Virus record (IMG/VR): IMGVR_UViG_3300036760_001400
Length of the DNA: 23,886 nt
Source: an uncultured virus (IMG/VR IMGVR_UViG_3300036760_001400)
Lineage: Duplodnaviria > Heunggongvirae > Uroviricota > Caudoviricetes
Strand: one strand, 5' to 3'
Shown here in pieces: positions 4,135 to 23,455 of this stretch. Position 1 is the stretch's first letter. Each line of letters opens with the position of its first letter. The translations under genes were made by a program, and so were the position numbers. The notes beneath the pieces are model-generated. The model saw only the letters and a program-made list of their open reading frames with translations, was not told where the DNA came from and searched no databases.

Positions 4135-4144
4135 TCATCTCATG

Positions 4145-4186: not shown

Positions 4187-4205
4187 ACTTTTATAGGAGA
4201 ACAAA

Positions 4206-6737: not shown

Positions 6738-6883
6738 TAAGTTATCTTTCCGAGATAAACTGCCTAACTTCACTATAACTCGGCCCTCCCTCTATCCAGA
6801 CAGCCTGTTCTGAGGACATTCTCTATCCAGAGTGTCCTCAGGTGGGCTGTTCCCCACTAGCCTTCCTTTTGAAAGGAGAAAAG

Positions 6884-7105: not shown

Positions 7106-7138
7106 TCCTGCGTGTGACCGGGTAGGTAGTACTACTGG

Positions 7139-7171
7139 GGGAGGGGGAGGCGTAGCCTCCCCCTCCCTTTT
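7139..7171 (+). terminator. Intrinsic terminator
   Basis: gggagggggagg/cctccccctccc stem followed by tttt. Confidence 0.65.
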
Positions 7172-7193
7172 CTTAAAGAGAGAGGATACTAAC

Positions 7194-7475
7194 ATGCCGC
7201 TCGTTTATTCGTTCAAAGCCGCGTCTGAGTTTCCTGACGAGACCAACATTTGCATCTGTTTTGCCAGGAACTCGGCAATCAAGATCCGCACGGGAAGCGG
7301 AGATTTCAGGGTCTTTATCAGAAGGCTGGAGCTTCATCCGGGAAACAATGAGTATTCGTTTATCGGGAAAGTCGGCACAACGGATGTCCAGGGAGTTTAC
7401 AACTCTCTGAGAAAAGATGGGGTCATCATCTTTGTGAAGGAATCCGTCCTTCATAGCTTTGACGCAACCGTATAG
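7194..7475 (+). CDS. Hypothetical protein (93 aa)
   Basis: ATG ORF with RBS gagagga, co-oriented with neighbours. Confidence 0.65.
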   Translation: MPLVYSFKAASEFPDETNICICFARNSAIKIRTGSGDFRVFIRRLELHPGNNEYSFIGKVGTTDVQGVYNSLRKDGVIIFVKESVLHSFDATV

Positions 7476-7590
7476 CGGGGAAACGGGAGAAAGTTTCAGG
7501 AGGCAGCTAGGGCCGTCCTGACATTTACCCCCTCCCTATAGGCTGGAGAGAGTGGGAAACACACCCTGCTCCAGCCTACTTACCAACAAT

Positions 7591-7620
7591 GCCGGGGGTG
7601 GGCCTTGGCCCACCCCCGGC
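7591..7620. repeat. Perfect 14-bp GC inverted repeat upstream of the glycosyltransferase pair
   Basis: gccgggggtgggcc-tt-ggcccacccccggc. Confidence 0.7.
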
Positions 7621-7639
7621 TCCCTGGTAGGATGGTTCT

Positions 7640-8620
7640 ATGAAAGTACTGTACGTCCTTGGAAATTATCCAAAGATTTCCGAGAGCTATATCTCAGCTG
7701 AGCTCAAGTTCATGAACGGCCGTGATATTGAACTTGGCGTCTGGTCTCAAAGGACTGGAAGTCCTGGAGTAATTCCCTTGATTCCTCCTACCCTTGGAAC
7801 TCTTGAAGAGGCGATCTCCTCTTTCAAACCGGACATCATTCATGTCCACTACATCTCAACTCATGACTCTTTTTTCAGCATCATCGAAAGGTCCGGGAAG
7901 CCTGTTACCGTGAGGGGTCATTCCTTCGACTTTTCTGTTGATCGGGTAAGAATCCTTTCCGCAAGAAAGTATATCCGGAAGATCTACCTCTTTCCTCATA
8001 TGGCCAGGATATGTCCTTTTGAGAAAGTCGTACCCCTTCCCGTAGCCTTCGATTCCTTGCTCCATCAACCTTCTTCCAGTAAAGATTGGAATATGGTCCT
8101 TCGTTCCGGGGCTGCAAAACACGGAAAAGGTCTCGAGAGTTTCTTCCATGTCGCCCAGCTTTGCCCGAACTTCAGATTTGTTCTAGTCGCTAATGTCATC
8201 TGGGGAGAAGAGTCCTACATGGACTTTCTTCGTGAGAAAACAATGCTCTCAAAAGGGAGGGTAACCTTCTTTGAAAATATGCCTAATGAAGAGTCAGCTA
8301 GCCTTACAAGGAAAGCGGGCATCTATCTGGATACCAGTGACATAGACGGGCATCCCTTTGGGATGCCCGTTTCTATCGCTGAAAGCATGGCTACAGGGGG
8401 CTATGTCCTTGCCTTGGATCGTATGGGAGCTAAAGAGTACATTGGAGACGCTGGAGCTATCTACAGGTCTTCAGCAGAGGCGGCCAGGATCATCAACTCC
8501 ATGACTCTTTCGACAAAATCGGACCATGAAAAAAGTATCGATCGATCTGTTCTTCAGTCATTTAAGTTCATGGATACCAATGTCTTACCTAAGGTGATCA
8601 ATGACTGGAAATCCATGTAA
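7640..8620 (+). CDS. Glycosyltransferase, GT-B fold (GT4-like)
   Basis: MKVLYVLGNYPKISESYI N-terminus, KPDIIHVH, TVRGH, KHGKG, PFGMPVSIAESMATG (E-x7-E-like signature). Confidence 0.85.
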   Translation: MKVLYVLGNYPKISESYISAELKFMNGRDIELGVWSQRTGSPGVIPLIPPTLGTLEEAISSFKPDIIHVHYISTHDSFFSIIERSGKPVTVRGHSFDFSVDRVRILSARKYIRKIYLFPHMARICPFEKVVPLPVAFDSLLHQPSSSKDWNMVLRSGAAKHGKGLESFFHVAQLCPNFRFVLVANVIWGEESYMDFLREKTMLSKGRVTFFENMPNEESASLTRKAGIYLDTSDIDGHPFGMPVSIAESMATGGYVLALDRMGAKEYIGDAGAIYRSSAEAARIINSMTLSTKSDHEKSIDRSVLQSFKFMDTNVLPKVINDWKSM

Positions 8621-9206
8621 TCCGAAGCTTTCTATCATCATCCCGACTGTCGGAAGAGAGAGTATCCGTGGAACTCTTGCCAGTATCTATGGGCAGCTTC
8701 AAAGGGGAGATGAGGTTATTGTCGTTGGAGATGGGCCTCAGCCTCTATCTGAAAAAGCAGCTAACTACCTTGGGTTAAAGTACTTAGAAACTGAGCCTAC
8801 GCGTGAATGGGGGCACGCTCAAAGGAACTTTGGGATGACGGCTGCGAAAGGCGATTACCTTGCTTTTATCGATGACGACGACTACTACCTTCCTCATGCC
8901 CTTGAATTCATGAGAACAGCTATCCTTGAGGATCCCGGAAAAGTCTTCCTCTTCAAGATCGAGGATGGTGTCCGAGCCATATGGGAGGACGAGAGGGTCC
9001 GTTTCTCAAACGTATCAACCCAGATGTTCGTTGTCCCCAACAACCCTAATAAGCTTGGAAAGTGGCAGAAGAACGTTTACGACCAACATGGAAAAGGAGG
9101 TGACTATCGGTTTATCTGTGACACGGTTGTATTGTACGCCCCGGGAGATCTCATTTACCGCCCAGAGATCATCGCTCGGGTTCCATTTCATTCGGGCGGA
9201 GTCTAG
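8601..9206 (+). CDS. Glycosyltransferase family 2 (GT-A fold)
   Basis: LSIIIPT, EVIVVGDG, AQRNFG...AKGDYLAFIDDDD (DxD motif), GGD. Confidence 0.9.
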   Translation: MTGNPCNPKLSIIIPTVGRESIRGTLASIYGQLQRGDEVIVVGDGPQPLSEKAANYLGLKYLETEPTREWGHAQRNFGMTAAKGDYLAFIDDDDYYLPHALEFMRTAILEDPGKVFLFKIEDGVRAIWEDERVRFSNVSTQMFVVPNNPNKLGKWQKNVYDQHGKGGDYRFICDTVVLYAPGDLIYRPEIIARVPFHSGGV

Positions 9207-9214
9207 GAGGTTTT

Positions 9215-9463
9215 ATGTTCAGTCTGTTTTTCAGACCTGTTAAGGCCGGTCAGATGACCGCCTTACCAAACTTCGAACAGGGTAGCGAAGACGAGGCTGT
9301 TTCAAGGGCTATCAGGCTCTCGCATACCTGTTTTGAAGTCATTGTCAATAATCCTGACGGAAAGTGTTTCCTTCGGATCATCAACAAAGAGGTTGTTTAC
9401 CCGGAGAAAGAGAACCTGGTCTCTTATATGTACCAGGTTCTTGTTGGACTCGAGATCGTTTAG
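9215..9463 (+). CDS. Hypothetical protein (82 aa)
   Basis: RBS aggagg directly after the GT2 stop. Confidence 0.7.
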   Translation: MFSLFFRPVKAGQMTALPNFEQGSEDEAVSRAIRLSHTCFEVIVNNPDGKCFLRIINKEVVYPEKENLVSYMYQVLVGLEIV

Positions 9464-9468
9464 TTTTC

Positions 9469-9511
9469 GAAGGTCCGCAAGGGCTAGGGACCCTGCAGGC
9501 CTTCCTTTTTT
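9469..9511 (+). terminator. Putative intrinsic terminator with CTAGG-containing loop
   Basis: gaaggtccgcaaggg-ctaggga-ccctgcaggccttc followed by a T-run. Confidence 0.55.
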
Positions 9512-9526
9512 AGAGAGGATCTTATA

Positions 9527-9748
9527 ATGACTCCCACTGAAGTCGCCGTAGCCAAGGCCAATATGGAAGCGGCCGGTATGGCTCCCATTATCGTGATCTG
9601 CATGGATTGCGGAGTCACGTACGATGTAAAACCGGGCGGAGAACCTTATCCTCCCGAGCTCAGGAAGTCCCATGGATACTGCCCATCTTGTGGTATTCGA
9701 TTCATGGAGCGTTTCGAGATATGTAAGGACACTCATGAGATCAGGTAG
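9527..9748 (+). CDS. Small Zn-finger protein (CxxC...SHGYCxxC)
   Basis: CMDC and SHGYCPSC; RBS gagga. Confidence 0.75.
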   Translation: MTPTEVAVAKANMEAAGMAPIIVICMDCGVTYDVKPGGEPYPPELRKSHGYCPSCGIRFMERFEICKDTHEIR

Positions 9749-9774
9749 GTTTACGAGTCATTAAGGAGAGAGAC

Positions 9775-9840
9775 ATGGGGAAACAGACGGTTTGGATTCT
9801 GGTTGCGCTGATCGTTCCTCACATTTTGATCAGCTTTTAA
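9775..9840 (+). CDS. 21-aa hydrophobic microprotein
   Basis: RBS taaggag then MGKQTVWILVALIVPHILISF*; followed by a 13-bp hairpin at 9857-9885. Confidence 0.45.
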   Translation: MGKQTVWILVALIVPHILISF

Positions 9841-10049
9841 CCTATCATGGCAGGAAGCCGGGGGCCCCCGATGGGGGCCCCCGGCCTTGGCGCAAGAGTG
9901 AGAGGATATTTCTCACCCTTGAGCCAGGAAGAAGGAAACGTGCCAGTAAGTGGATACTCGTTCACCGGGAAACAGGAGTAAAGACTGATCTAATCTTAGA
10001 TAGAGTATCCCTTATAAGGCAAGTGGTATAAGTGCAGGCGGATCAAAGA

Positions 10050-10076
10050 AGTCACTTTAGTCACTTTAGTCACTTT
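10050..10076. repeat. Three perfect tandem copies of AGTCACTTT
   Basis: Direct reading: agtcacttt-agtcacttt-agtcacttt. Confidence 0.9.
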
Positions 10077-10231
10077 GTGATGAGGGAGACTCCTCGCTTA
10101 AGACCCGGCCTCCACCTGCGGTTCCGGCCGGGACGCTCGTCGTCCTTTGTATTAGCGGATCATCGGGCCCTCTAGATTCGCTTGCACTAGAGTGAAAGAG
10201 TGCACGCGGGCTCTAGGGGAAAGTGCTTCGC

Positions 10232-10260
10232 ACGATAGCAAAATCTTCTGGAAAAGTCAA
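10232..10260 (-). promoter_or_regulatory. Sigma70-type promoter, antisense to the gene flow
   Basis: Minus strand TTGACT-17 bp-TATCGT with an extended TG. Confidence 0.55.
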
Positions 10261-10366
10261 GTGTTTGAGGATGTAAAGTGGAGGGTAAGATACGAAAGAT
10301 GTAACTCCATGTGGCTGCGTAGGTTACGTGTTAGCTTGTTATCAAAAGGAACGAAAGGAGGTGCTC

Positions 10367-10702
10367 ATGAAGCACTGCTCACTGTGTAAGGCGGAGATGC
10401 CGGCCGCCGTAGAGTCCGGTATAGGCTATCAGCATGAGGTCCTGTGTGGGACCTGCCTGAAGGCCGTCCAGAGGGTTTGCCCGCATTCCCTGAGAAAGGA
10501 GGATGGAATCACGTGCAGGGACTGTGAGGCGCGTCCTTGGACCTTTGGGAGGGTTGTACGAGGTGTTCTAGGAGGTGTCAAGACGGTATCTGTAGGGTTC
10601 GCCAAGCTATTTGTCATGTACACGATCTCATCGATCATGGGATCAATCGTGACCTTAGGTTTGGCTTACCTGCTGGGCAAGAAGATTGGCTTCCTGCCCT
10701 AG
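10367..10702 (+). CDS. Zn-finger protein with C-terminal membrane segment
   Basis: RBS aaggaggt before ATG 10367; CSLC, CGTC, CPH, CRDC; hydrophobic C-terminus. Confidence 0.75.
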   Translation: MKHCSLCKAEMPAAVESGIGYQHEVLCGTCLKAVQRVCPHSLRKEDGITCRDCEARPWTFGRVVRGVLGGVKTVSVGFAKLFVMYTISSIMGSIVTLGLAYLLGKKIGFLP

Positions 10703-10737
10703 TTTTGAGGATTTAGAGAGATAAGGGGAAGGTTCCC

Positions 10738-11037
10738 ATGGACAAGTCCAAAGAGTACATTGAGCGGTCGGAAGTCATCCTGGGGAAGGTGAAAGAGCTG
10801 GTCAGTGAAGCATGGCCGGCTTTTGGTATCGAAACCATCATTGTTCCCTTTGGTCAGGGCGCCAGGGTCTGCCTGATTCGGGCAATTGGAAGGGGAGTTT
10901 ATCCGATCGCTACGGCCTGCGTGAACGAGTTTAAGTTCTCTACCAAGGACATCGTGCACGGTCTTTGGGGAGTTCTCAAACTTCGAGCGAAGGACGAGGT
11001 CCAGTACCTGAAGAAGGAGTCGAAGCTCAAGAAGTAG
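10738..11037 (+). CDS. Hypothetical protein (99 aa)
   Basis: ATG ORF with purine-rich RBS, co-oriented. Confidence 0.7.
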   Translation: MDKSKEYIERSEVILGKVKELVSEAWPAFGIETIIVPFGQGARVCLIRAIGRGVYPIATACVNEFKFSTKDIVHGLWGVLKLRAKDEVQYLKKESKLKK

Positions 11038-11097
11038 CATTGTAGTTTCTGTCCTGGTAGTCGTCTTGACACATCTGTAGGCCGCTTATCTCCTATA

Positions 11098-11517
11098 TCG
11101 CTCCTGGGGTGATAGCCGACTGTCATCCCCAGGCGAGTAGTGTGAGAGCAGATGTAGATAGGCAGGGTGGATGGAACGTTCACTCGATGCTGAAGTCTCC
11201 ACGGCTTCTGGCGTTCCTTAGGCCCCTGGTTAACACCAGGGGCAACGGAAGTTGCAGGACAGATTGGAGTTTATTCCCGTCTTGGCGTTCTTCTGGATCG
11301 ATGTACTCGATGACCTGACAAGACCAGCGTCATTAGATGCGTCGGCTTGAAGATCCGGGCGGAACGCTCGGGTGAAGAGCAGTTTCTGTTGTTCCTGATG
11401 TAGGTCCTAAGGATCCTGGCGTACGGCTGCGGCCTACCGCCAGGATCCACCGGACCATCGGCAAGACGGGCCTTGTGGGCCCTAGGGCAGGGATAGCCTG
11501 CCCTAGGGCCCTTTTTT
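11098..11517 (+). ncRNA. Candidate structured ncRNA (~400 nt) ending in an intrinsic terminator
   Basis: TTGACA at 11066-11071 upstream; stems at 11103-11133, 11165-11185, 11222-11243, 11242-11255 (GGAA loop), 11355-11371, 11403-11456; G-U pairs favour the plus strand; terminator 11477-11517; no RBS-led ORF. Confidence 0.55.
11477..11517 (+). terminator. Intrinsic terminator
   Basis: 15-bp stem gggccctagggcagg/cctgccctagggccc followed by tttttt. Confidence 0.8.
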
Positions 11518-11544
11518 ATTAACCAAAATCCCTGAAAGGTTTCC

Positions 11545-11709
11545 ATGAATTGTGATCACGTGAGAGAGGTGGTCAAGGGTAGTCGTTCCCTTTCCCAGCA
11601 TGAAGAAATGCCTTATCTCAGACATCTTCGTGCATGCGGAAAGTGCAGGGTCGAGATAGGTTCGGAAGAACGTAGAAAGGCCATCGAGACGGTAGTGCTC
11701 GAGGACTAG
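11545..11709 (+). CDS. Stand-alone zf-HC2 (ZAS anti-sigma-type) zinc-finger protein, 54 aa
   Basis: RBS gaaaggt; MNCDHVREVVKG...YLRHLRACGKCRVEI, i.e. N-terminal Cys plus HxxxCxxC; below the ORF-track cutoff. Confidence 0.7.
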   Translation: MNCDHVREVVKGSRSLSQHEEMPYLRHLRACGKCRVEIGSEERRKAIETVVLED

Positions 11710-11752: not shown

Positions 11753-12475
11753 ATGCCGTTTATCACGCGGCCTGTCAGGATGAGCAGGGAAAAGGTTCCT
11801 CGGTTTGACAGGGCATCTGTCCCGTTTTCGGCTGAAAACGAGAAGTACACCCTCCATGTTCTTGAGAATCCACCTGCCTCGGTAACCGTTGTTTTCAAGC
11901 AGAAACTCAAGACTCAACGTGGGGGTTGGTCAAAGAAGCCACCTATGATCTTTAGGTACAAGATAAAGGTGCCCTGGTGCTACTTCTTGATGAGGCAAAA
12001 CAGGTCCGGAGCCATCACGGACACGTTTCTGTTCTTTGCGGAAGACAAGCTGAAGGATACTCGGGGACGTGTATTCTTGCCCCCGCTTCCAAACATCTAC
12101 CCTTCAGGCCATATCTGTAACGGGACGATCAAGGTCAATTTCGACGATCCTCCGCATATCAAGATCGCCGAAGCATTTAGAGCCTTCTGGTCTACCCCGT
12201 TCACGGAAGAGACGTGGCCTGAAGACCGTGGTCTCCTCCCGGCTTGCTTCAATGAGGAAGAGGGGCACGCATACGTTATCGAGTACGGGTACCTGAAGTA
12301 TGTCTTTTCGTACTGGGAGGTCCATGATGAGAACCATGAGGGGTGTTCCGGCAACATCTGGAGGTCATTCAGGCCCCGCTCAAAAGGCGGTCATTATGGA
12401 GGGTATTTGACCTGCCTTCAGCAGGTCATGGATTACGCGCTTGCGTTCAATGTCTTTGATCATGTCCAGACTTAA
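11753..12475 (+). CDS. Prokaryotic E2-like protein (Prok-E2_D / PRTRC protein B-like), copy 1
   Basis: LPPLPNIYPSGHICNG...AFWSTPF motif with the putative catalytic Cys; precedes JAB-E1-Ubl. Confidence 0.75.
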   Translation: MPFITRPVRMSREKVPRFDRASVPFSAENEKYTLHVLENPPASVTVVFKQKLKTQRGGWSKKPPMIFRYKIKVPWCYFLMRQNRSGAITDTFLFFAEDKLKDTRGRVFLPPLPNIYPSGHICNGTIKVNFDDPPHIKIAEAFRAFWSTPFTEETWPEDRGLLPACFNEEEGHAYVIEYGYLKYVFSYWEVHDENHEGCSGNIWRSFRPRSKGGHYGGYLTCLQQVMDYALAFNVFDHVQT

Positions 12476-12488
12476 TAGGAGGTGACTT

Positions 12489-13715
12489 TTGTCGGAAGAC
12501 AAGAACAAGGGCAAGGAGAAGGAGAAGCGTCCTGTCGAGTGCTCTATTGAGTACATTACGGGGCGGGAGGGCTACTACGTCAGGAAGAGTAACCCTCTCT
12601 TTACGGCCGTCGTCAGGGTTGGAACCAATCCTGAAATGGATCCGGTAACCGAGGAACTGACGTATCATGGGAAGAAGATTCCCGGGAACGTTTTCCGTCA
12701 GTGGCTTACCTTTGGAAGGGAGGTGGCTGCGAAGGCCAAGGGAAACTCGGAAGCCGGACTGATCCTCTTCTACCACCCCACAGAATGCACGTGGGGGGCA
12801 TTCCCACCGAAGCAGGATCTCTCGAGTGTGTCGGTTGACTTCACCGGAGTCACTGACTGCATCGGGAAGTTCCGCGAGGAGCACGGAAAAGAATGGCTCA
12901 TGGCAGGTACTCTGCATACCCACCCTGGGGATGCCGGCCCGTCTAGCATCGATGTGGATGATGAAAAGAAGCTCGATGGCATCCATCTCATCGTCCCTGA
13001 CTTTGGACGCGGAGCTGATCGAGGCATCAATTGCCATATCGTGTGCTCCGGAGAGCGTTTTGTGGTCAAGAAACCGGTCGGGTTCTTGATCGATTGGGAT
13101 TCAGAAGAGGGGAAAGCCTCTATTGAAGTTCCCGATTCGTGGCTTACCCAGGTGAAGTTTGGACGGCCTTCCTCGAAGGCCTTTGGTTATTCGGGTGAAG
13201 GGTACTCTTCCGGCTATTACGGCGGCCACAGTGGGTACGGTAACTCGGAGCATATCTTCAAGGGCCAGGGGCCCAAGATGCACAAGGCTACTGTAAACGG
13301 GGTTGATATAAACCTCGTTGGCGAGATCTTCGAGGTACGCGAGATCAAGGCCGTCCTTAAGCGTCTTGGGTTCACAAATGGTCAGAGGAAGTTCCTCCTG
13401 TCCAACTTCGAGGACGATATGGAGGATATTTTGATCGCCTTTGATAAGGCGCGTGAAGCGCTCAAGTTCTCGAAGGAGATCTGCGGTACGGTATCCGATC
13501 ACGAGCACGGCGAGATCGTTGAGAAGATCGCTGATGCAACCACTCAAATCCTCGAGAGCCTGGTGACCATTGCCGAGCGGATGCTTGAGAGTGCTGGCAA
13601 GGGAAGCGGGGTGGATGACGGAGTCAAGGAAGATGCGGGAGAGGAGGACATAAAAGAGGAGTCGCCTTCGATCGAGAAGTCTGTGGGTGAGTTTGATCAC
13701 AGGGATATTTCTTAG
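12489..13715 (+). CDS. JAB/MPN+ metallopeptidase (PRTRC protein A-like), copy 1, with C-terminal extension
   Basis: NSEAG Glu plus GTLHTHPGDAGPSSIDVDDE (HxH-x7-S-x2-D); TTG start with RBS aggaggt. Confidence 0.85.
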   Translation: MSEDKNKGKEKEKRPVECSIEYITGREGYYVRKSNPLFTAVVRVGTNPEMDPVTEELTYHGKKIPGNVFRQWLTFGREVAAKAKGNSEAGLILFYHPTECTWGAFPPKQDLSSVSVDFTGVTDCIGKFREEHGKEWLMAGTLHTHPGDAGPSSIDVDDEKKLDGIHLIVPDFGRGADRGINCHIVCSGERFVVKKPVGFLIDWDSEEGKASIEVPDSWLTQVKFGRPSSKAFGYSGEGYSSGYYGGHSGYGNSEHIFKGQGPKMHKATVNGVDINLVGEIFEVREIKAVLKRLGFTNGQRKFLLSNFEDDMEDILIAFDKAREALKFSKEICGTVSDHEHGEIVEKIADATTQILESLVTIAERMLESAGKGSGVDDGVKEDAGEEDIKEESPSIEKSVGEFDHRDIS

Positions 13716-13723: not shown

Positions 13724-14680
13724 GTGGAGGAAAATGCTGTCGTTGTCGCCATCGATCCGGTTACCGGGTTTCAGCCTGTACGGGTGATCCTGGTAGGTCT
13801 TGGAGGGATCGGCTCCAAGCTCGCGGATGAGCTTGCCCGGTACATGTCGTATACGTCGAAAGCTCCCAAGGAGCTCCTTCTCATCGATGGAGACGTGTAC
13901 TCCCAGGGGAACCTCGAACGCCAGAGCATCCTGGAAAGTGACGTGGGCAAGTCCAAGGCTCAGGCGTGGGCCGATGGCCTTGCGGCCGAGTTTCACAACC
14001 TGTCGGTTTCCGCCATGTGTGGCTACGTTGGAAAGGAGGGGACTAAGAAGGACAATGTCGTTCCAATCGACAAGATCTCTCTCGAAGGTTCGATTGTGAT
14101 CCTGGGTGTCGATAACCACAAGACCCGGAACCTGTTCTACCTCTGGTGCCTTGTACACGTGCCCAGTGTGTACCTGATTTCCGGAGGGAACAACAAGTTC
14201 GATGGGTCGGTCATCAACCTGTGGAAGAACAATGGAAACAGGTTGATCGACGGCTTCGCTTTTCATCCTGAGATTTTGAATCCTCAGGATAAGAATCCCG
14301 CGGATCTTTCATGCGCGGAGCTTGCGAAGATCGATGGTGGTACCCAGGTCATCTGGGCCAACGGAATGGCTGCAACAGTGATTGGCAACGAAGTCCACTC
14401 GATTGTGACGGGCGAGTGGGACAAGCTCCGCAAGAGGGGCGAAGTCTACTTCGATATCCTCGAGAACGTTTCTGTTTCCCGTCAGAGACTCGTTACCGGA
14501 AAGGAGGTCACGGAACCGCAGGTAACGAAGGTAGTGGAGAAACCGAAGGTTACGGTGAAGAGAGTGGTCAGGAAGACCAAGGGTAAGAAACCTGTCTCCG
14601 CAGAGCTCAAAGTCGTCGACGAGCGGGGATCGGAATCCAACGAAACCCTGCAGATCTATCCTGCCGGCTCCAGCCAGTAG
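13724..14680 (+). CDS. ThiF/E1-like ubiquitin-activating enzyme, copy 1
   Basis: LVGLGGIGS, LIDGD, NLERQ, DVGKSKA, GVDNHKTR, ISGGN, putative catalytic Cys in DLSCAELA; Lys-rich tail. Confidence 0.9.
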   Translation: MEENAVVVAIDPVTGFQPVRVILVGLGGIGSKLADELARYMSYTSKAPKELLLIDGDVYSQGNLERQSILESDVGKSKAQAWADGLAAEFHNLSVSAMCGYVGKEGTKKDNVVPIDKISLEGSIVILGVDNHKTRNLFYLWCLVHVPSVYLISGGNNKFDGSVINLWKNNGNRLIDGFAFHPEILNPQDKNPADLSCAELAKIDGGTQVIWANGMAATVIGNEVHSIVTGEWDKLRKRGEVYFDILENVSVSRQRLVTGKEVTEPQVTKVVEKPKVTVKRVVRKTKGKKPVSAELKVVDERGSESNETLQIYPAGSSQ

Positions 14681-14764
14681 CCCGAGAAGTGGGAAGTACC
14701 TTTAGCGTGTCCCAAGCGTGTCTGTTTTCTGTTTCACTTTTTTATTCCTTTGAAGGGGGTTCCA

Positions 14765-14942
14765 ATGGTCAAGGTCATGTGCGGCATCAATGCGTACCCG
14801 ACGACGAAGGTCATCGGGATGAAGGTCTCCGACATCAGGAAGAACTTCAAGGATGTGCTGAACATCCCCGCTGATGCCAAGAGCCTCCTGAACGGCCAGC
14901 CCGTGAAGGACGATACGATCGTGCCGGACGGGAGCGAGCTGG
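14765..14942 (+). CDS. Ubiquitin-like (beta-grasp) protein Ubl-1, exon 1
   Basis: MVKVMCG...IGMKVSDIRKNFKDVLNIPADAKSLLNGQPVKDDTIVPDGSEL; follows E1; aligns with Ubl-2. Confidence 0.8.
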
Positions 14943-15536
14943 TCGCGCCACGAGCATAAGAAATTATGCGCAACTACACGAAGGATGAGGGTGGGCCCCT
15001 CGGAGCCATTCTGCAGGGAAAGGCTTCAAGCCACCGTACGCGGCTTTGGTCAAAAGCCACGGTCGTGAGCAGTGCGGGAAAAGGCTTAGGAATAAGTCAG
15101 GCGAGGATCAAGAAGATGAGCGAAAGCAAACCATGGGTGACGCGTCGATAGCTCAAGATGACATCAGAACCAGGGTTGCCAGCTATCTCTGGGATGAGCT
15201 CGGAAGAAACCTGTTTACTGTCCGAGTGATGTCCGGCGTATACGTGGCATGAGCTTGATCTAGGCCTTCGTGTGGAACGTGGGAATCTGTCGCGTGGTGC
15301 CAAGAGAAAACCCTATAAGCGATCATTCGCAAAAGGGGAAAGTATCGATACATGCGACAGACTCGCATCATCTCATAGTAGCGTTGAAGCTCTTGTAATG
15401 AGAGTGGAGCCAAGGAGATGACTTAGTCAAGTGAAGGTACGGTTTCTATACTTGACTGGGACGAGCCGTATGAGTCGAGAGACTCGCGTACGGATCTGTG
15501 AGAGGATTGAGGTGAAATTCCTCTTTCCTACTCGGC
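14943..15536 (+). mobile_element. ORF-less group II intron (IIB, resembles bacterial class D), 594 nt
   Basis: DV gAGCcgtatgagtc-GAGA-gactc-gc-gtacggatc 15463-15496; DVI with bulged A15530 seven nt from the end; DI closing stem ccacg 14948-14952 / cgtgg 15278-15282; EBS1 ccagct 15179-15184 pairs with IBS1 agctgg 14937-14942; DII 15286-15361; DIII agtagcgttgaagctctt-gtaa-tgagagtggagc; DIV reduced to hairpin 15425-15457. Confidence 0.92.
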
Positions 15537-15571
15537 AATTCGTGAAAGAAACTGGGGAAAAGGGTTGCTAG
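15537..15571 (+). CDS. Ubl-1 exon 2 (E-F-V-K-E-T-G-E-K-G-C-stop)
   Basis: Joining 14942 to 15537 gives CTG GAA TTC GTG AAA GAA ACT GGG GAA AAG GGT TGC TAG, matching LEFIRPPGTKG of Ubl-2; spliced protein is 70 aa. Confidence 0.85.
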
Positions 15572-15607
15572 TACCAGTTGTTCAGTGACTTGCATGATGT
15601 TGTGTAG

Positions 15608-16591
15608 TCATTGAATTGTCCGTGGGTCCCGTGGGTTGAGAAACTCACGGGACCCACTCTTTGGAACGTATTTTAATGACATGTGTTTTTTCAAATTACA
15701 TGGACTACAGATCAAACGCAGGTTGCTAAGTTGGTTTATTTTTACGATCTCTTCCAACGTGTTGGCTATGTGCTGAGGAACAATGTGATCTACATGTGAG
15801 TTCTCAACGTTTAAGATAATACCATTGCAACTGGACTGTTCCAGGCACGGTTTGTTTAAGAATGAGCTTAGGTGTAAATAAGCCTCTTCTTTGGAATATC
15901 CAAGAAGCTTAAAGGTAGGCCCCCCTATCTTGCCAAGCTCTTTTCTTCTGAGTGCCCTCCAGATCGCTCCTCTTATTCTGCCTGGAAGTAACTGGACTTC
16001 TCTGAACTCTATTCTGAGCTCCTTCTTAATACATCCACACGACTTGGTCAGTTCCCGTAGCACGCTATGAAGGAAGACAGTCTTTCTATTCCCACAGTCG
16101 CATAGACATTCAACAAACCGCCTTTTTCCTACATGGACTTCCTTCTCGAGAGTCAGCCGGCCGAACTTTGTTCCTTGGACGAACTCCTTCTCAGTTGGCC
16201 TCCCGGAATTCTCTTTTCTAGTACACCCACATGAAGTCGTGTTCTTACGCTTAAGGGAGTTAAGGGTAGTCGTGATAAGCCTTCCGCAGTCACACTGGCA
16301 TTCGAAGGCTCTTCTTCCATACTTAGGATCCGCTTCTCTCAAGATCATGAGCTTTGAGAATTTCATTCCCTCGTGAATAAGATCACGTCTCTTAGCGGCT
16401 GCACTTTTCCATGAGCATCCGCACGACCTAGTCTTTCCCTCTCTAAGATCGCTTAAGCCAGATATGGTCGTATTTCCGCATTCACATAGACACTCGAACA
16501 TCCTTCTTCCTGGCGCTCTTTGGTCTACTTCCTTAACTATCTTCAGTTTTCCGAAAGGCTCTCCAGGAAATATCTCGAGTCTAGCAGGCAC
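15608..16591 (-). CDS. Free-standing HNH homing-endonuclease-like protein with three N-terminal Cys-rich repeats
   Basis: Three repeats of G.xF.+L...CxCxCG...SCGC and C-terminal HVDHIVP...NLRLICSPCNLKK; AT-richer than flanks, opposite strand. Confidence 0.88.
   Translation of the reverse strand: MPARLEIFPGEPFGKLKIVKEVDQRAPGRRMFECLCECGNTTISGLSDLREGKTRSCGCSWKSAAAKRRDLIHEGMKFSKLMILREADPKYGRRAFECQCDCGRLITTTLNSLKRKNTTSCGCTRKENSGRPTEKEFVQGTKFGRLTLEKEVHVGKRRFVECLCDCGNRKTVFLHSVLRELTKSCGCIKKELRIEFREVQLLPGRIRGAIWRALRRKELGKIGGPTFKLLGYSKEEAYLHLSSFLNKPCLEQSSCNGIILNVENSHVDHIVPQHIANTLEEIVKINQLSNLRLICSPCNLKKHMSLKYVPKSGSREFLNPRDPRTIQ
15622..15662 (+). terminator. Hairpin terminator of Ubl cassette 1, overlapping the HNH 3' end
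   Basis: 16-bp stem gtgggtcccgtgggtt-GAGA-aactcacgggacccac followed by tcttt. Confidence 0.6.
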
Positions 16592-17909: not shown

Positions 17910-17941
17910 GAGTGGGTGCCCCCGCATGGGGGCACCCACTC
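17910..17941. repeat. 14-bp GC inverted repeat (terminator or processing hairpin)
   Basis: gagtgggtgccccc-gcat-gggggcacccactc. Confidence 0.65.
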
Positions 17942-17971
17942 TCTATTGGAAATATTTCTAGGAGGATTAGA

Positions 17972-18685
17972 ATGCCTTTTGTCACTCACGTAAAGGATCC
18001 GGATCGGATCCCGACCAACCGGAAAGCTGATTGGGGAGTTCCTTCCGGACGCGTACGTCATATCGAAGTCAAAGGAGATCATGCCATCTACGTCATCGAA
18101 GAGGAGCCTTCCGTTGTTCCCGTGATCATGAAAGCGGATGATGGGTATATCTCCCATGACGTATGGCTTCCGTGGAGATACTACGTGATCCGCGCTTACT
18201 CAAATTGCAGGGTCTCCGGAAGACAGCCTGGGTACATGTTCTTTGCAAACAAAAGGATCGAATCCTTGGATGACCGAGGCCTTCTGAAGAGGGCTGTTTT
18301 CCCGAATGTTTATGATGGCGGGGGCATCTGCCTTGGCTATACCGGACATGTCTGGGACAGGACCCCTGTTCGCGCGGCCTGGAGAGCGATCCGGCTTCTT
18401 TATTCGAAACCTGGAAACCAGTGGTTTACGGGAGACTATTTTCCAAGGTCTCTTATGATGGGAAAACTCCTTCCTAAAGAGTGCGACAGAACCCATCGGT
18501 ACGGTTGTACGTACGCTTGCTACTGGTCTATGGCTTCCAAGGAAGAAGTTCTGGAGGTCGCTTGGTTCACTGCACCGTACGTGAGCTTGAGTCACTTCCT
18601 GAGTAACGTGGAATGGGACTTCAATTCCATGAATGTGCTTTCGGAAAGCGAGTTCCAGAAAAGGTTGAGAGAAACCGTTCGGTAA
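17972..18685 (+). CDS. Prokaryotic E2-like protein (Prok-E2_D-like), copy 2, directly upstream of the RT
   Basis: RBS aggagg; MPFVT start like copy 1 (MPFIT); LPWRYY, MFFANKRI, FPNVYDGGGICLG. Confidence 0.72.
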   Translation: MPFVTHVKDPDRIPTNRKADWGVPSGRVRHIEVKGDHAIYVIEEEPSVVPVIMKADDGYISHDVWLPWRYYVIRAYSNCRVSGRQPGYMFFANKRIESLDDRGLLKRAVFPNVYDGGGICLGYTGHVWDRTPVRAAWRAIRLLYSKPGNQWFTGDYFPRSLMMGKLLPKECDRTHRYGCTYACYWSMASKEEVLEVAWFTAPYVSLSHFLSNVEWDFNSMNVLSESEFQKRLRETVR

Positions 18686-18695: not shown

Positions 18696-19622
18696 GTGGG
18701 CTGGTTGGATATTTCCCTATACAAGACGATCCGAATTCCGAAGAAGCGTGGAATCCGGGTCATCCATGCGCCATGCCCTGAGCTCAAGGAGAAGCAGCGG
18801 CAATATCTCCGGAACGAAGTCATGGGTCACTTGAGATGGCCACGGGGGATCACGGCTTTTCTTCCGGGCCGCTCCATTGTCGATGCCGCTCGTCCTCACA
18901 TCGGAAAGAAGTATCTCGTGGCAATCGATATCAAGGACTTCTTTCATCATGTGACTCCCTACCACATCCTCAGGGCTATGGAATTCGAGAAGTTCCTTCC
19001 AAGAGAAATAGAGACGCGGGCTGCGCCTTTGCCTGTAAACTGGAAAAACGCGGCTCCTCCGAATAGCCTCCTGCAGATCTCTTTTATCCCATCTCCGAAA
19101 GTTCCAGGGGAGTTCTGCCTTCCCCAAGGAAGCCCGCTTTCACCTTATCTGTCCCTCATGGCATCGAAAGCGTTCTACTTCAAGATTCTTTCGATGCTCA
19201 GGAACAAGAAGGTGAAGGCTGATCTTACCGTCTACGCTGACGGCATCTTCCTCTCATCCGATGAGAAGAGGATCATTCCCATCGGGCTTCATGGGGTTGA
19301 AAGGATCCTGGCCAGCGAGCGGTTCAGGCCAAACCGTCAGAAGTTCAGGGTCATGCGAAGTACTGGAGCTCAAAGGGTTTGTGGAATTACCGTCAATCGT
19401 AAGCTCTCCGTTCCAAAGGGAAAGCGCCGGGAGATCCGGGGAAGGGTCCATAACCTCTTTATGGACGCGGTCAACGGCAAAGAAATCGATGTCAATGAGT
19501 TCAGGTTCCTTCAGGGTTTCCTTTCCTTTGCACGGCAGATCGATCAGAACTGGACTTTTGGTTTCGAAAAGTCCATGGCTTACATTCGCCTGACTCTCCA
19601 AGCCAGACATAAAATCAAGTAG
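18696..19622 (+). CDS. Retron-type reverse transcriptase with degenerate active site (YADG); true start may be TTG 18705
   Basis: YKTIRIPKKRGIRVIHAP, AFLPGRSIVDAARPH (NAxxH-like region X), IDIKDFF, LPQGSPLSPYLS, YADGIFLS, NRQK, QRVCGITVN (VTG-like region Y); no maturase X or En domain. Confidence 0.88.
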   Translation: MGWLDISLYKTIRIPKKRGIRVIHAPCPELKEKQRQYLRNEVMGHLRWPRGITAFLPGRSIVDAARPHIGKKYLVAIDIKDFFHHVTPYHILRAMEFEKFLPREIETRAAPLPVNWKNAAPPNSLLQISFIPSPKVPGEFCLPQGSPLSPYLSLMASKAFYFKILSMLRNKKVKADLTVYADGIFLSSDEKRIIPIGLHGVERILASERFRPNRQKFRVMRSTGAQRVCGITVNRKLSVPKGKRREIRGRVHNLFMDAVNGKEIDVNEFRFLQGFLSFARQIDQNWTFGFEKSMAYIRLTLQARHKIK

Positions 19623-19774: not shown

Positions 19775-19805
19775 CTTCCGATTTCAAGTTCTTTTGGAGG
19801 CTTTC

Positions 19806-20681
19806 ATGAGCACTTCCCAGAATGCAGTCATCCTGTTTGACGGACGCGCCTATTCAGCAGAACTGATTGTTCATGCCTCGATGCCTGTCTCAGAAGCTCT
19901 TAAGGGCATGGACGAGATGGGCGAGACAAAGTTCACCTTCGTGCCTCATGGAGATATCTCCTGCGCGGGGTTCGCACGCTTCGAGGATCGTCGATTCTAT
20001 CTCATGTACTTCCCGCCCAAGCGCCGCCAGCTTATCTGGCGGAACAAGCATAACGACGAGCGCCGCCAGTTCGTCCTGTGGTGGCCGCATGTCTACCTTG
20101 GGATCTTCTTCCGGGGAGGATCGATTGAGGATGGTTACGCGATGGCTTCCAGGAAGAAACTGACATCGCTCCAGGAGAAGCTCTGCCGGCTGCCGCTCCC
20201 AAATCTCGGAAAGAAGTTCGGGCATATCTGCGAGGGGGCTAAGGGAATGTGGAATGTCATGGCCCGTCCCGAGGAGTCGGCTTACCAGTATTCCGACTAC
20301 TTCTTCAAGAGCGAATGGCTCAGCGACATCAATGATCACTGGTCGTTTCTCCCGAAGGATCTGTATCCCGCAGGATGGGACTTCTCGAAACAGATTCCGA
20401 GTGAGAATCAGTATGAAGACCTGAACCAGAAGATCCTTGGAGTCTGGGAAGCCATTTCAGAGACAGACCCGAGAGCTGTCGAGAGGATCCAGTGGCCTGA
20501 GCATTTTACGATCGATGACCTTGTCCAGGCGGAATGGAAGGGAAAAATGACGATCGATGGACAGAGCGGAATCACTCTGGAGCAGATTCAATCGATCCTC
20601 GGAGGCCAGACAGGAGCGGCTCCCGTAGCGGGCCTGACTGGCTTACAAGGCATCGTTACTTTCAATAATCAGAACGCTTAG
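19806..20681 (+). CDS. Prokaryotic E2-like protein (Prok-E2_D-like), copy 3
   Basis: RBS ggagg; PPKRR, WWPHVYL, LCRLPLPNLGKKFGHICEG...YFFKSEW. Confidence 0.72.
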   Translation: MSTSQNAVILFDGRAYSAELIVHASMPVSEALKGMDEMGETKFTFVPHGDISCAGFARFEDRRFYLMYFPPKRRQLIWRNKHNDERRQFVLWWPHVYLGIFFRGGSIEDGYAMASRKKLTSLQEKLCRLPLPNLGKKFGHICEGAKGMWNVMARPEESAYQYSDYFFKSEWLSDINDHWSFLPKDLYPAGWDFSKQIPSENQYEDLNQKILGVWEAISETDPRAVERIQWPEHFTIDDLVQAEWKGKMTIDGQSGITLEQIQSILGGQTGAAPVAGLTGLQGIVTFNNQNA

Positions 20682-20689
20682 GAGGAACC

Positions 20690-20995
20690 ATGAAGTTTCC
20701 GTCACCTCAGTACTTTGGAATTGGGGATGTGAAGAAAGCGGACCGTGATCTCGAATCCGCATTATTTTCGAAGATCTCGGGCCTTGGAGAGAGAGGCAGG
20801 TGGCCTCTCATTACGTCGGTTCTCGAAGCTCCGCAGCTCTTCAAGATCAAGAGTCCCATCCGCCAGGAGATCCTTCTTCTCGTTGGAAGGACCATGGAAA
20901 AGATCGGTTTCTCGGGATCCAAGAAGGACAAGCGTATCGGGTTTCAGCTTTGGAAATGGATGAAGGTTCAGGAACAAAGAGGAGGTCTTTTCTAA
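20690..20995 (+). CDS. Hypothetical protein (101 aa) within cassette 2
   Basis: RBS aggagga; its stop overlaps the JAB-2 start (TAATG). Confidence 0.75.
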   Translation: MKFPSPQYFGIGDVKKADRDLESALFSKISGLGERGRWPLITSVLEAPQLFKIKSPIRQEILLLVGRTMEKIGFSGSKKDKRIGFQLWKWMKVQEQRGGLF

Positions 20996-22641
20996 TGGCT
21001 AAGTACTTCATGACCCCGAAGGGAATCTTCAAGGAGCACCAGGACGATCTTTTCACCGGGATCCTGGAAGCCAAACCTCCGTTCTCATTTCACAAGGAGT
21101 ATGACATTTGCGAGACCGTGGACGATGAGATGGAGGAGAAGCTGTCGCTCAAGTTCCAGAGGATGCCGATCTCAGTCTTTCAGGAGGCTCTTGAATTCCT
21201 TCGCTGGTGTCGGCTGAAGCATCAGTCCGAAGGGTTCGTTGCCCATCGATATTTTGCGGAGACCGGGACCTGGAAGAACTATGTACCGTACCAGGCGACC
21301 TCGGGAACGGCCCTCTGCTATCACATGGAACTCGATTTATCCCAGTCCAGTCGAGTGGCTGCGGATACCCACTCTCATCCTCCAAAGGATGAAAAGGGAA
21401 CGGGTGCAAGCTTTCATTCATCGACGGACGGTCTCGATGAAAGGAAGAACGACGGTCTTTTCATCGTCGTGACCGGGTGGACGCCCATGACCTGCGATCC
21501 TGATATCGTCGGATGTGTCGAGGGAAAGAAGTTCCACCTGAAGCCCGAGCAGTTCTTTGACCTCTCGATCTACAATCCGAAGCCCACGTTTCCAGAGGAA
21601 TGGAAGTCCAGAGTCTCCTCATACCCCTGCACCCATTGTGAACGGAAGCGCGATCTCGATCGCCTTTCGAAGGAGATCTCGGATACCTCCAGAGTGTACG
21701 AGGACGAGAAGAAGTATCGCCTGATTCCAAAAAAGGTTCTCGATCTCCTCAGGAGCGCTCCCAATATCGAGCTTCCGGGGAAGGCGATTATGGAGAGCCA
21801 GAAGGCATACGAACGGCTTATGAGCCCGAACTGGCCTCGCATGTTCCGGTGCGACAATCATGGGTGCGGAAAGCTGCAGTCATTTCTTAATTGCACCGAC
21901 TGCAAGCGTGGGGTCGCGACTACCAAGGTATTCGAGATCATTTCCGACATGATGGATGAAATGTATCTCTTTACCGAAAGAAAGGAGGATGTGGCAACGG
22001 CAACCCTGATCGTCGAGGAATCCCTCAAGAAAGAGCCTGTTCTTCCGGATAAAACGGCAGCGATTACCCCTCCTCCGCATTCACTTCCGGTGAGCGCTTC
22101 TACTGGGGATCTTGGACGTAAGGATGAAAGATCCTCAAGTATTGTTGTCGTATCCACGGACAGGAAATGTGGAAACGATTGCATCTACAATGCAATTCCT
22201 CATGAACACGCTGAGTCTAAATCAACCCTGGAAAAAGCGTGGAGGGCCATGAATACCGAGCCTTCTGCCGCGAAGGTCCGCAGTGTCGTTGGGTGCTCCA
22301 GTAGAGCTTGTGTTGAGAGCAAGCATATCTGGGCGATCTGCGAGCTTCGTAAAAGGTACTTTGAGCTCGTGGTAAAGTGTCCTTCCGATTTCTGCAAGGA
22401 AGGCGGCCATACTTGGGATAGATGTGAGGTGAAAGCGTACCTCATTTCCCTTGTGAAGAGCGGCATCGAGTTCTCTGTTCCAGAAAAGAAGTCTTCGATA
22501 TTAGAGCCTGTCGTGATCGGAGACACGTGTGTCTGCTTGCCGGCATGCAGTATGAGGGAGATTCCCCACAGACACGAGCTCTCGGATGACGCGAAGGCGA
22601 AGGCTTCGAGTGAAATGAGCATGTATGGAGATGGAATGTGA
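20995..22641 (+). CDS. JAB/MPN+ metallopeptidase, copy 2, with a long Cys/His-rich C-terminal region
   Basis: QSEG Glu, ADTHSHP...FHSSTDGLDE; translationally coupled ATG at 20995; multiple CxxC/CxxxC/H clusters. Confidence 0.85.
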   Translation: MAKYFMTPKGIFKEHQDDLFTGILEAKPPFSFHKEYDICETVDDEMEEKLSLKFQRMPISVFQEALEFLRWCRLKHQSEGFVAHRYFAETGTWKNYVPYQATSGTALCYHMELDLSQSSRVAADTHSHPPKDEKGTGASFHSSTDGLDERKNDGLFIVVTGWTPMTCDPDIVGCVEGKKFHLKPEQFFDLSIYNPKPTFPEEWKSRVSSYPCTHCERKRDLDRLSKEISDTSRVYEDEKKYRLIPKKVLDLLRSAPNIELPGKAIMESQKAYERLMSPNWPRMFRCDNHGCGKLQSFLNCTDCKRGVATTKVFEIISDMMDEMYLFTERKEDVATATLIVEESLKKEPVLPDKTAAITPPPHSLPVSASTGDLGRKDERSSSIVVVSTDRKCGNDCIYNAIPHEHAESKSTLEKAWRAMNTEPSAAKVRSVVGCSSRACVESKHIWAICELRKRYFELVVKCPSDFCKEGGHTWDRCEVKAYLISLVKSGIEFSVPEKKSSILEPVVIGDTCVCLPACSMREIPHRHELSDDAKAKASSEMSMYGDGM

Positions 22642-23382
22642 TTGGGAGGAAACGTGGCAGAGCGACCGCCGTTTGATTCGATCGTGGTTGTCGGCCTTGG
22701 GGGGATCTTCTCGAGGCTGTGGCTCAACCTTGGAGACCTGGCTGAATTCACGGAAGCTTCTCCAAAAAGGATCCTCCTGATCGATGGGGATGATGTCGAG
22801 GAAAAGAACGTCTCCCGACAGGGATTTATCCGGACAGACCTGGGGAAAAAGAAGTCGCAGGTCTATGAAGACCGGATGCGCCGTCGATATCCGGCGCTCA
22901 CCATAGCATCCAGGGGTGATTTCCTGACCCCGAAGAACATGAGGGATTTCATTCCGGATCGTTCCATCGTCTTGTCTGCTGTCGATAACAACAAGACGCG
23001 CCTGCAGATCTCAGCGCACGCTCAAGCCCTCAAGGATGTGGTCGTCATTTCCGGAGGCAATGAGATCTGGGATGGAACCGTGTATCTCTATGTCCGTGAA
23101 AGCGGGGTTTCGAAGGTGATGCCGCTTGAAGAGAAGCATGAGAGCGTGAAGAACCCGAAGGACAAGAATCCGGGCGAGATGAGCTGTGAGGAACGTCTTT
23201 CCCAGAAAGGAGGGGAGCAGATTCTGGTTACGAATGCCATGGTTGCGGTTCATATGGCCGCGATGTTCCATGACGTTCTTCGTTCATGGACCGAATGGAA
23301 AGGGAAGGAGGTGAAGAAGACGGGGGAAGTCAGTTTCGATGTTCGGGATTACTGCTCGCTGGGCTATGTACGTAATCCCTAG
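22642..23382 (+). CDS. ThiF/E1-like ubiquitin-activating enzyme, copy 2
   Basis: VVGLGGIFS, LIDGD, NVSRQ, DLGKKKS, AVDNNKTR, ISGGN, NPKDKNPGEMSCEE; clear paralog of copy 1. Confidence 0.9.
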   Translation: MGGNVAERPPFDSIVVVGLGGIFSRLWLNLGDLAEFTEASPKRILLIDGDDVEEKNVSRQGFIRTDLGKKKSQVYEDRMRRRYPALTIASRGDFLTPKNMRDFIPDRSIVLSAVDNNKTRLQISAHAQALKDVVVISGGNEIWDGTVYLYVRESGVSKVMPLEEKHESVKNPKDKNPGEMSCEERLSQKGGEQILVTNAMVAVHMAAMFHDVLRSWTEWKGKEVKKTGEVSFDVRDYCSLGYVRNP

Positions 23383-23455
23383 GAATCCGTGACCTTCGGG
23401 CCTGTCGTCCGAAGGTGGTGCAGTATTGTTGACCCCTATTTTCAAAGGAGCTGCT

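Follow-up and report, generated by a model that had tools for sequence, protein, structure and literature searches.

An ORF-less group II intron separates a ubiquitin-like protein gene from its conserved C-terminus in DNA of an uncultured virus

Introduction

The classes of group II introns are defined by the phylogeny of their intron-encoded proteins (IEPs). RmInt1 is described as a IIB3/class D intron (PMC4238363). Group II introns without an open reading frame (ORF) counted as rare in bacteria in 2015 (PMC4424553), although a 2025 study reported many of them from phage contigs (PMC12350094). Bacterial ORF-less introns are described as being spliced by the IEP of a related intron, and C.te.I1 as splicing by itself (Zimmerly and Semper 2015, PMC4424553). 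Here we analyze an ORF-less group II intron found in a stretch of 23,886 nt from an uncultured virus (IMG/VR record IMGVR_UViG_3300036760_001400). This whole stretch is hereafter called the window, and all coordinates are counted in it. The intron occupies positions 14943-15536 of the + strand (594 nt) and interrupts Ubl-1, a gene for a ubiquitin-like protein (Ubl), within the codons for the C-terminal motif that is conserved in its protein family.

Ubl-1 closes an E2-JAB-E1-Ubl gene cassette (cassette 1). The PRTRC-type or Prok-E2_D Ubl cassettes, and the Bil and CBASS-Cap2 systems, which we take to be kin of such cassettes, likewise have a gene for a small, Gly-tailed beta-grasp protein alongside E2, JAB and ThiF-type E1 genes. 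A literature search on PRTRC-type, Prok-E2_D, Bil and CBASS-Cap2 systems found no intron-bearing member.

Results

Two Rfam models match the sequence that interrupts Ubl-1. RF01999 (group-II-D1D4-2) covers positions 14987-15102 with 95.6 bits (gathering score 36), and RF00029, which describes domains V and VI (DV and DVI), covers 15461-15536, stopping exactly at the last intron base, 15536, with 52.3 bits (gathering score 40). Folded alone, the 594 nt formed six domains with a minimum free energy of -226.4 kcal/mol (z score -5.35), and none of 100 shuffled sequences folded as well. For the analysis of covariation the intron was aligned with eight ORF-less relatives, one from a Methylomonas plasmid, one from a Neochlamydia plasmid and six from metagenome-assembled genomes (MAGs). 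The RNAalifold consensus of these nine introns contains 179 pairs, 101 of them with compensatory changes, and the Ubl-1 intron forms 156 of the 179 (14 are mismatched and 9 fall at gaps). Other outlying lineages keep similar numbers (162 pairs for L002, 164 for L003 and 163 for L060), and several of the 14 mismatches are alignment artefacts at lineage-specific hairpins. Distant blastn searches returned 200 plasmid records and several genomes whose group II introns share 65-71% DNA identity with the Ubl-1 intron over domains I-III (D1-D3), and a 17-nt DV/DVI seed recovered more than 121 loci in species genomes. A phage collection yielded two short matches to parts of the intron and nothing more, and an exact 31-nt DV pattern had no match in viral contigs.

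In the consensus fold, domain I (DI) extends from 14968 to 15280, domain II from 15283 to 15364 and domain III from 15368 to 15421. Domain IV (DIV, 15422-15460) is reduced to a hairpin of 39 nt, with a 33-nt core at 15425-15457 and a folding energy of -15.8 kcal/mol. On the + strand of the intron there are just two ORFs of at least 50 amino acids, 14966-15151 and 15046-15252; both lie in DI and none in DIV. DV (15463-15496), placed by the RF00029 alignment and the fold, displays the catalytic AGC triad (15464-15466), a two-base bulge and a terminal GAGA tetraloop. DVI (15499-15534), placed in the same way, carries a bulged branch A, A15530, which is the seventh base from the intron 3' end and within the usual 7-8 nt. 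The epsilon' region of DI contains an AAGC bulge (15028-15031). In Merk et al. (PMC12350094), the mark of IIB introns is an AARC bulge of 4 nt within the epsilon'/lambda region of DI. Such a bulge was present in all 13 rows of our table of introns with two readable ends, which represent 12 distinct introns including the Ubl-1 intron because L138 is the same locus as L083. G3-C4 of the intron can pair with the G-C of the AAGC bulge: C4 can pair with its G, where relatives have U4 with A or G. Judged by primary sequence and predicted fold, the Ubl-1 intron is thus a group II intron of the IIB type, nearest to RmInt1-like RNAs. The original prediction had proposed a group II intron with a branch A at -7 and a 33-nt DIV hairpin devoid of ORF and maturase, and the two Rfam models, the covarying six-domain fold, the position of A15530, the hairpin at 15425-15457 and the list of ORFs agree with it on each of these points.

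The pairings that would define the splice sites were read from the sequence. Exon-binding site 1 (EBS1, CCAGCU, 15179-15184 in DI) forms six pairs out of six with intron-binding site 1 (IBS1, AGCUGG, 14937-14942), which covers the last six exon bases up to the 5' splice site. The CCAGCU hexamer occurs once in the intron, against 0.14 occurrences expected by chance. It lies in an 11-nt loop after a 3-nt prefix, the same register as EBS1 of L004, the RmInt1-like intron of Sinorhizobium meliloti plasmid pRmeGR4c, whose exon pairing was checked by eye. EBS2 (GCUC, 15151-15154 in DI) pairs with IBS2 (GAGC, 14932-14935) over 4 bp, which is weak when taken alone; the corresponding loop of L083 carries an EBS2 of 6 bp and an identical 1-nt spacer. 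A column scan gave U15241 in DI as candidate EBS3. As to the ends of the intron, a conserved CACGAG anchor aligns UCGCG with the GUGUG or UUGUG of relatives, and the 3' ends of relatives (...A-CUCG-GC) fall at the same column as 15536.

The reading frame of Ubl-1 points to the same boundaries. Exon 1 (14765-14942, + strand) includes IBS2 and IBS1 and runs through 59 codons to the first base of codon 60, and exon 2 (15537-15571, + strand) provides the last two bases of this Glu codon followed by FVKETGEKGC and a stop in translation. Without splicing, the frame that opens at the ATG at 14765 meets a stop at 14959 and ends in ...DGSELVAPRA (64 residues). When 14943-15536 was removed in silico with a script, the product ended in ...VPDGSELEFVKETGEKGC with its stop at 15569-15571, in parallel with the terminus of Ubl-2 (...GDLLEFIRPPGTKG-VRILVRC), the Ubl of a second cassette in the window. 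Codon 60, interrupted by the intron, is the Glu codon of the conserved C-terminal Ubl motif. Spliced Ubl-1 aligns with the intron-less protein P0002 (...DGCEIEFVKETGEKG...) without gaps and with 81% identity over 69 amino acids. Exon 1 is 78% identical to P0002 and 76% identical to P0003, also intron-less, and the FVKETGEKG of exon 2 is present unchanged in P0002 and in a third intron-less protein, P0007. Out of 12 neighbouring junction combinations tried, four were in frame and 14942/15537 was alone in giving L-E-F, the Glu codon being obtainable solely from G14942 and A15537-A15538. An alternative 3' splice site at 15539/15540 was in frame and would give a consensus AU end, but it was rejected, as it removes a residue of L-E-F and places the branch A at -10. 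Because of the EBS1-IBS1 pairing, the alignment of the ends with those of relatives, the DVI branch A and the intron-less homologues, we place the predicted exon junction at 14942/15537, that is GAGCTGG/AATTCGTG (in RNA, GAGCUGG/AAUUCGUG). This is the junction of the original prediction, which had based it on the same six pairs of EBS1 and IBS1, the DI closing stem and the branch A and now gains the homologous loop, the ends of relatives and the P0002 alignment; its statement that the unspliced gene ends in ...DGSELVAPRA without a Gly motif likewise matches the translation. Intron-less alleles, whose existence it had left to be checked, are represented at the protein level by P0002, P0003 and P0007. 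In the four DNA runs searched, no contig joined the exons across the intron site and hence no intron-less DNA allele was seen there.

To what extent the missing terminus characterizes the family was judged from homologues. A profile made from four Ubl sequences matched 979 proteins at E<=1e-3, many of which are tandem poly-Ubl proteins. The C-terminal motif was counted in 28 proteins taken from 150 listed of the 979, and 26 of the 28 carry [LIVM]E[FY][VILT][KR]..G.KG followed by no further residue (12 proteins), one residue (9) or two to eight residues (5). Spliced Ubl-1 has this C-terminal Gly (...LEFVKETGEKG-C), and the unspliced product is without the motif. The AlphaFold2 model of P0002 is a beta-grasp fold with bb-a-bb-b order, a predicted local distance difference test score of 79.2 and a last strand at residues 58-62. 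Its best fold matches in the PDB are MoaD, ubiquitin, ISG15 and NEDD8, with template modeling scores of 0.58-0.63 and E values no better than 3e-3, and P0004 and P0012, two members of the family, score above the Pfam ThiS cut-off. The intron, at codon 60, therefore lies inside the last beta-strand as modeled. Unspliced Ubl-1 is predicted to lack half of this strand together with the Gly tail, and the truncated protein is unlikely to fold. That splicing is needed for the function of the cassette-1 Ubl is a well founded deduction from family conservation, and the original prediction, which held splicing to be required for cassette 1 activity, stands in this sense: the family C-terminus would be encoded by the spliced mRNA only. 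The gene set suggests that the JAB protease would expose the Gly of Ubl-1 and that the E1 would activate it. Of note, P0004, P0005, P0009, P0012 and others contain two to four tandem Ubl repeats, each ending in ...G.KG, which resembles polyubiquitin precursors.

The ends of the intron, UCGCG...GC, depart from the consensus GUGYG...AY as quoted in PMC4424553 and PMC4238363. The original prediction, right in calling an intron, had overlooked these non-consensus termini, which bear directly on the ability of the intron to splice. The consensus is not strictly defining, as the 3' end of RmInt1 is CC (PMC4238363). Across 124 DV/DVI-seed loci the last two bases were AU in 54, AC in 41, GC in 18, CC in 3, CA in 1 and unreadable in 7. 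Among the 12 distinct introns with two readable ends, U1 occurs in the Ubl-1 intron and in seven distinct relatives from four genomes, all ending in GGC, and G1 occurs in four introns with the 3' ends GAC, GAU, GCC and GGC. Among the U1 relatives are four copies in one MAG (G002), each with GGGUC before it, and this sequence pairs with GACCC in the EBS1 loop of L083 and of L025. A further U1 relative, 1939 nt long, lies on an Actinacidiphila contig (L145+L028); its frame of 471 codons shares 48% identity with the IEP of L004. Since both multi-copy and IEP-encoding introns carry U1...GC, these ends are compatible with mobility and hence with catalysis. Two other candidate end pairs were rejected: the 5' end of L146 and the 3' end of L009 belong to sequences that do not overlap, and L128 (G001) has two partial DI copies before one DV. 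L144 and L148 (G008) were excluded from the analysis.

The UUGUG...GGC introns form a family that comprises the G002 loci L083, L130, L133, L135, L137 and L139-L143 as well as L025, L060 and L145+L028; a literature search on group II introns starting with UUGUG found nothing relevant. Unusual arrangements were also seen among the ORF-less relatives. In plasmid pS13 of Neochlamydia sp. S13 (L003), positions 852-2785 hold three group II introns, ORF-less and 644-645 nt long, placed head to tail with no exon between them, so that the 3' end ...CCCGAU is directly followed by GUGUG; each is annotated with a 49-residue hypothetical protein, and the upstream 'exon' mismatches the EBS1 loop of the introns. 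Plasmid pSBC1_3 of Caballeronia sp. SBC1 (L001) carries at 1336-2081 an ORF-less intron with a duplicated D1D4-2 segment about 400 nt upstream of an annotated ltrA, an arrangement that may reflect nested or tandem introns.

At the position of the 39-nt DIV, relatives have either a longer DIV or an IEP frame of 419 to 471 codons, and the frames of the nearest IEP-bearing relatives are 48% identical to each other. The original prediction had left room for a maturase elsewhere in the genome; our search covered the 23.9-kb window and returned none. When two group II IEPs were compared with the window by tblastn, no match was significant and the best (E 0.47) fell on a reverse transcriptase (RT) gene of the retron type (18696-19622, + strand). 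This gene was typed with NCBIfam and PADLOC, Pfam giving RVT_1 only. It scored 131 bits with the retron St85 model (below its cut-off) versus 20.8 bits with the group II maturase model TIGR04416 (cut-off 300), and matched PADLOC retron RT families, best RT_XIII at E 2.4e-43. On the retron St85 score, the PADLOC matches and the negative tblastn, it was rejected as the missing maturase. The RT gene stands between two E2-like genes (17912-18685 and 19794-20681), an unusual place for an RT, within a Ubl-conjugation locus.

The intron is not confined to one sample. One DNA run, which is likely the source sample, carries the whole stretch. In a second study (X2), a 472-nt contig with three differences bridges the 5' junction. 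In a third (X4), contigs with about 84-85% identity cover both junctions: the 5' one at 14684-15032 and the 3' one, along with the neighbouring HNH gene, at 15089-16330. The presence of the intron at the same site in X4 indicates that it is older than the roughly 15% divergence to X4. EBS1 reads CCAUUU in X4, with two changes (15182 G>T and 15183 C>T), and this predicts a matching change in the exon: if the intron is functional in X4, exon 1 would be expected to end in AAAUGG (codons GAA AUG G), which keeps E-[LIVM]-E. X2 contains in addition a more distant copy of the intron with a different EBS1, which suggests other insertion sites.

The other genes of cassette 1 precede Ubl-1 on the + strand. 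The E2-like gene (11753-12475) matches Pfam Prok-E2_D (PF14460) with 31.3 bits (cut-off 25). The JAB-like gene (12489-13715) has a weak Prok-JAB match (16.7 bits, below the cut-off of 25) and was assigned by its position in the cassette. The ThiF-type E1 gene (13724-14680) matches Pfam ThiF with 63.9 bits and NCBIfam PRTRC_ThiF with 45.7 (cut-off 144.75). Further downstream, also on the + strand, lie an E2-like paralogue between the cassettes (17912-18685) and then cassette 2, with another E2-like paralogue (19794-20681), a gene for a large protein with no family match (20800-22641), an E1 gene (22642-23382) and the uninterrupted Ubl-2 gene (23426-23710, 94 residues). NCBIfam places the E2 and E1 proteins nearest to the PRTRC system yet far below its cut-offs (17.6 against 131 for PRTRC_B, and 45.7 and 54.6 against 145 for PRTRC_ThiF), and no ParB match was found among the window ORFs scanned. 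PADLOC returned weak matches of the cassettes to BilD (E 3e-4) and to a Cap2-type E1, and nothing stronger. No related locus was found with the E1 protein in viral and metagenome contigs, nor did the Ubl alignment match a locus in metagenome, viral and genome contigs.

On the - strand, convergent with Ubl-1, lies a free-standing gene for an HNH endonuclease (15608-16591; Pfam HNH 26.9 bits, PHROG 374 E 2.1e-40) whose product has three Cys-rich repeats and whose 3' end is 72 nt from the 3' splice site. As a matter of conjecture, it could be a homing helper or be unrelated to the intron. A strong GC-rich inverted repeat (15623-15660, GGGUCCCGUG...CACGGGACCC) is located between the two convergent genes, where it overlaps the last part of the HNH frame. 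The repeat may act as a terminator in both directions, but it lacks a T-run and went unflagged in our analysis. PHROGs applied to the window proteins revealed no phage hallmark. In the first part of the window (1-11700) most large ORFs are without Pfam or PHROG family, including those for proteins of 579 and 843 amino acids, the latter with four metagenome relatives only, and two glycosyltransferase genes lie at 7640-9206.

Discussion

Our analysis establishes the ribozyme anatomy and the boundaries of the Ubl-1 intron, and the need for splicing if the gene is to encode the C-terminus of its family. We regard as probable that it is an RmInt1-like IIB intron without IEP ORF, inserted in the Glu codon of Ubl-1 and spliced out constitutively as a selfish element. 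A IIB intron close to the RmInt1-like (class D) ribozymes would have lost its RT/maturase ORF. Cassette 1 would be transcribed through the intron, EBS1 and probably EBS2 would pair with the last bases of exon 1, A15530 would attack the 5' splice site after G14942 and the exons would then be joined at 14942/15537. The product would be a beta-grasp protein of 70 residues ending in ...LEFVKETGEKG-C, whose Gly the JAB protease would presumably expose and the E1 activate. On unspliced RNA, translation would run five codons into the intron and give the truncated protein of 64 residues. Splicing in vivo appears likely, and we infer that the intron would be removed either by self-splicing or with a maturase acting in trans and encoded by a related intron at another place in the replicon or the cell. 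Most simply, a selfish intron that is just removed explains everything seen, and no regulatory role is needed.

Several observations weigh against this reading, and some of them favour a dead intron, that is a ribozyme that its UC 5' end or the want of a maturase makes unable to splice, in which case Ubl-1 would be a pseudogene and cassette 1 inactive or borrowing Ubl-2. The 5' end UCGCG differs from GUGYG in two positions; C2 is found in none of the 12 other tabulated rows nor among the other 5' ends found. There is no maturase gene within the window. The complete cassette 2 (19794-23710), with its uninterrupted Ubl, could make cassette 1 dispensable. In RmInt1, which has G1, few substitutions harmed the second step of splicing more than a penultimate G (PMC4238363), and a GC end thus cannot be taken as neutral everywhere. 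EBS2-IBS2 reaches just 4 bp, the U15241 column proposed for EBS3 fits all eight introns with G-U allowed but so do five other columns, and for gamma-gamma' a J2/3 column with a fit in L002, L003 and L004 was rejected, since the Ubl-1 intron and the L083 family have A-C there. The case for splicing, finally, is one built from sequence. Against a dead intron stand its intact core (the triad, bulge and loop of DV, the branch A and the AARC bulge) and a number of consensus pairs no worse than in other lineages. U1 together with a GC end is known from multi-copy and IEP-encoding introns, EBS1 matches the exon perfectly, exon 2 still encodes FVKETGEKG as in intron-less homologues and the intron has been kept at the same site in a relative that is about 85% identical. 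As to the GC end itself, an interaction between the first intron base and the penultimate one is assumed (Chanfreau and Jacquier 1993, cited in PMC4238363). The RmInt1 data on the penultimate G fit a covariation of the two bases, but our sample is small and contains one G1...GC intron; this intron (L131/L045, GUGCG with a GC end) rules out a strict covariation of U1 with the penultimate G. On this balance we hold it unlikely that the intron is dead.

The remaining readings concern what the intron might do beyond being removed. The neighbouring free-standing HNH endonuclease could cut intron-less Ubl alleles at the insertion site or close to it, so that repair would copy the intron and the HNH gene together and render the intron mobile without RT. 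Such DNA-level spread is compatible with the selfish, spliced intron that we favour, and it has precedents in free-standing endonucleases at intron insertion sites and in group II introns that use homing endonucleases (PMC6083498, PMC2790892, PMC12350094). The HNH gene is of a phage homing-endonuclease type (PHROG 374), its end is near the 3' splice site and the adjacency is kept in the relative with about 85% identity. The adjacency is, however, the sole evidence, free-standing HNH genes are common in mobile DNA, and the contigs of intron-less alleles span 483-1547 bp with the flanking genes outside them; we judge this spread improbable. The original prediction saw in splicing a possible switch, with conditional splicing through a trans maturase or ions gating Ubl-1 conjugation and the truncated Ubl serving as a decoy. 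Circumstantially, an intron without its own maturase may need a trans factor, and it is placed exactly where the conjugatable tail is removed. Nothing that we found supports either part of this proposal. No maturase or regulator in the window is linked to the intron, Rfam searches at E<=1 revealed no regulator, riboswitch or other family in or beside it, introns generally occupy conserved parts of host genes without a regulatory role (PMC2814812), and a product with half of its last strand gone would hardly fold as a decoy. A switch is the least probable of the readings considered here. A bolder variant is that Ubl-1 conjugation is controlled at the RNA level, the arming of cassette 1 depending on a class D-type maturase that reaches the intron in trans, for instance from a retroelement that is co-resident or incoming, with cassette 2 constitutive, and, independently, that U1...G(n-1)C is a natural, undescribed covariation; we think this very improbable too. 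The selfish intron, simply removed, remains our preferred reading.

Whatever the mode of splicing, the intron has consequences for annotation. Gene callers record the truncated 64-residue protein (P0001) and the cassette appears to be without a proper Ubl, so annotation of such cassettes without an intron search will miss modifiers. Group II introns within conserved protein genes of bacteria or mobile elements are uncommon. Natural ends with a 5' U and a 3' GC, and in this intron a 5' UC, give ribozyme specialists an existing system in which to test how the first nucleotide interacts with the penultimate one.

Among known systems, the RmInt1-like intron L004 (1887 nt) shows about 65% DNA identity to the Ubl-1 intron over D1-D3 and shares with it the AARC bulge, the size and register of the EBS1 loop and the DV/DVI layout. 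3' ends other than AY are found in both, GCC in L004 and GC in the Ubl-1 intron, and RmInt1 itself ends in CC (PMC4238363). RmInt1, however, has a 419-codon IEP in DIV, starts with GUGUG and sits in an insertion sequence, whereas the Ubl-1 intron has a DIV of 39 nt, starts with UCGCG, ends with GC and lies within a protein-coding gene. Also comparable are the ORF-less introns of 651-675 nt (UUGUG...GGC, 66-68% identity) present in multiple copies in the alphaproteobacterial MAG G002 and as single copies in G012 and G013. Like the Ubl-1 intron they have U1, a GC end and, except for L025 and L060, the DVI loop GUGAAAUUCC; they differ in having U at position 2, a longer DIV and, for the G002 copies, a preceding GGGUC. 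Like the ORF-less introns described in PMC4424553, the Ubl-1 intron would have to rely on self-splicing or on a maturase in trans. Known IEP-less introns of about 600 nt that match the same Rfam models likewise lie in conserved coding regions and have boundaries derived from intron-less homologues; there too splicing was inferred and a trans-acting RT was proposed. What is new here, and sets the Ubl-1 intron apart from them, is that its host gene encodes the Ubl of a conjugation cassette, that it is inserted precisely within the conjugation motif and that its termini are UC...GC.

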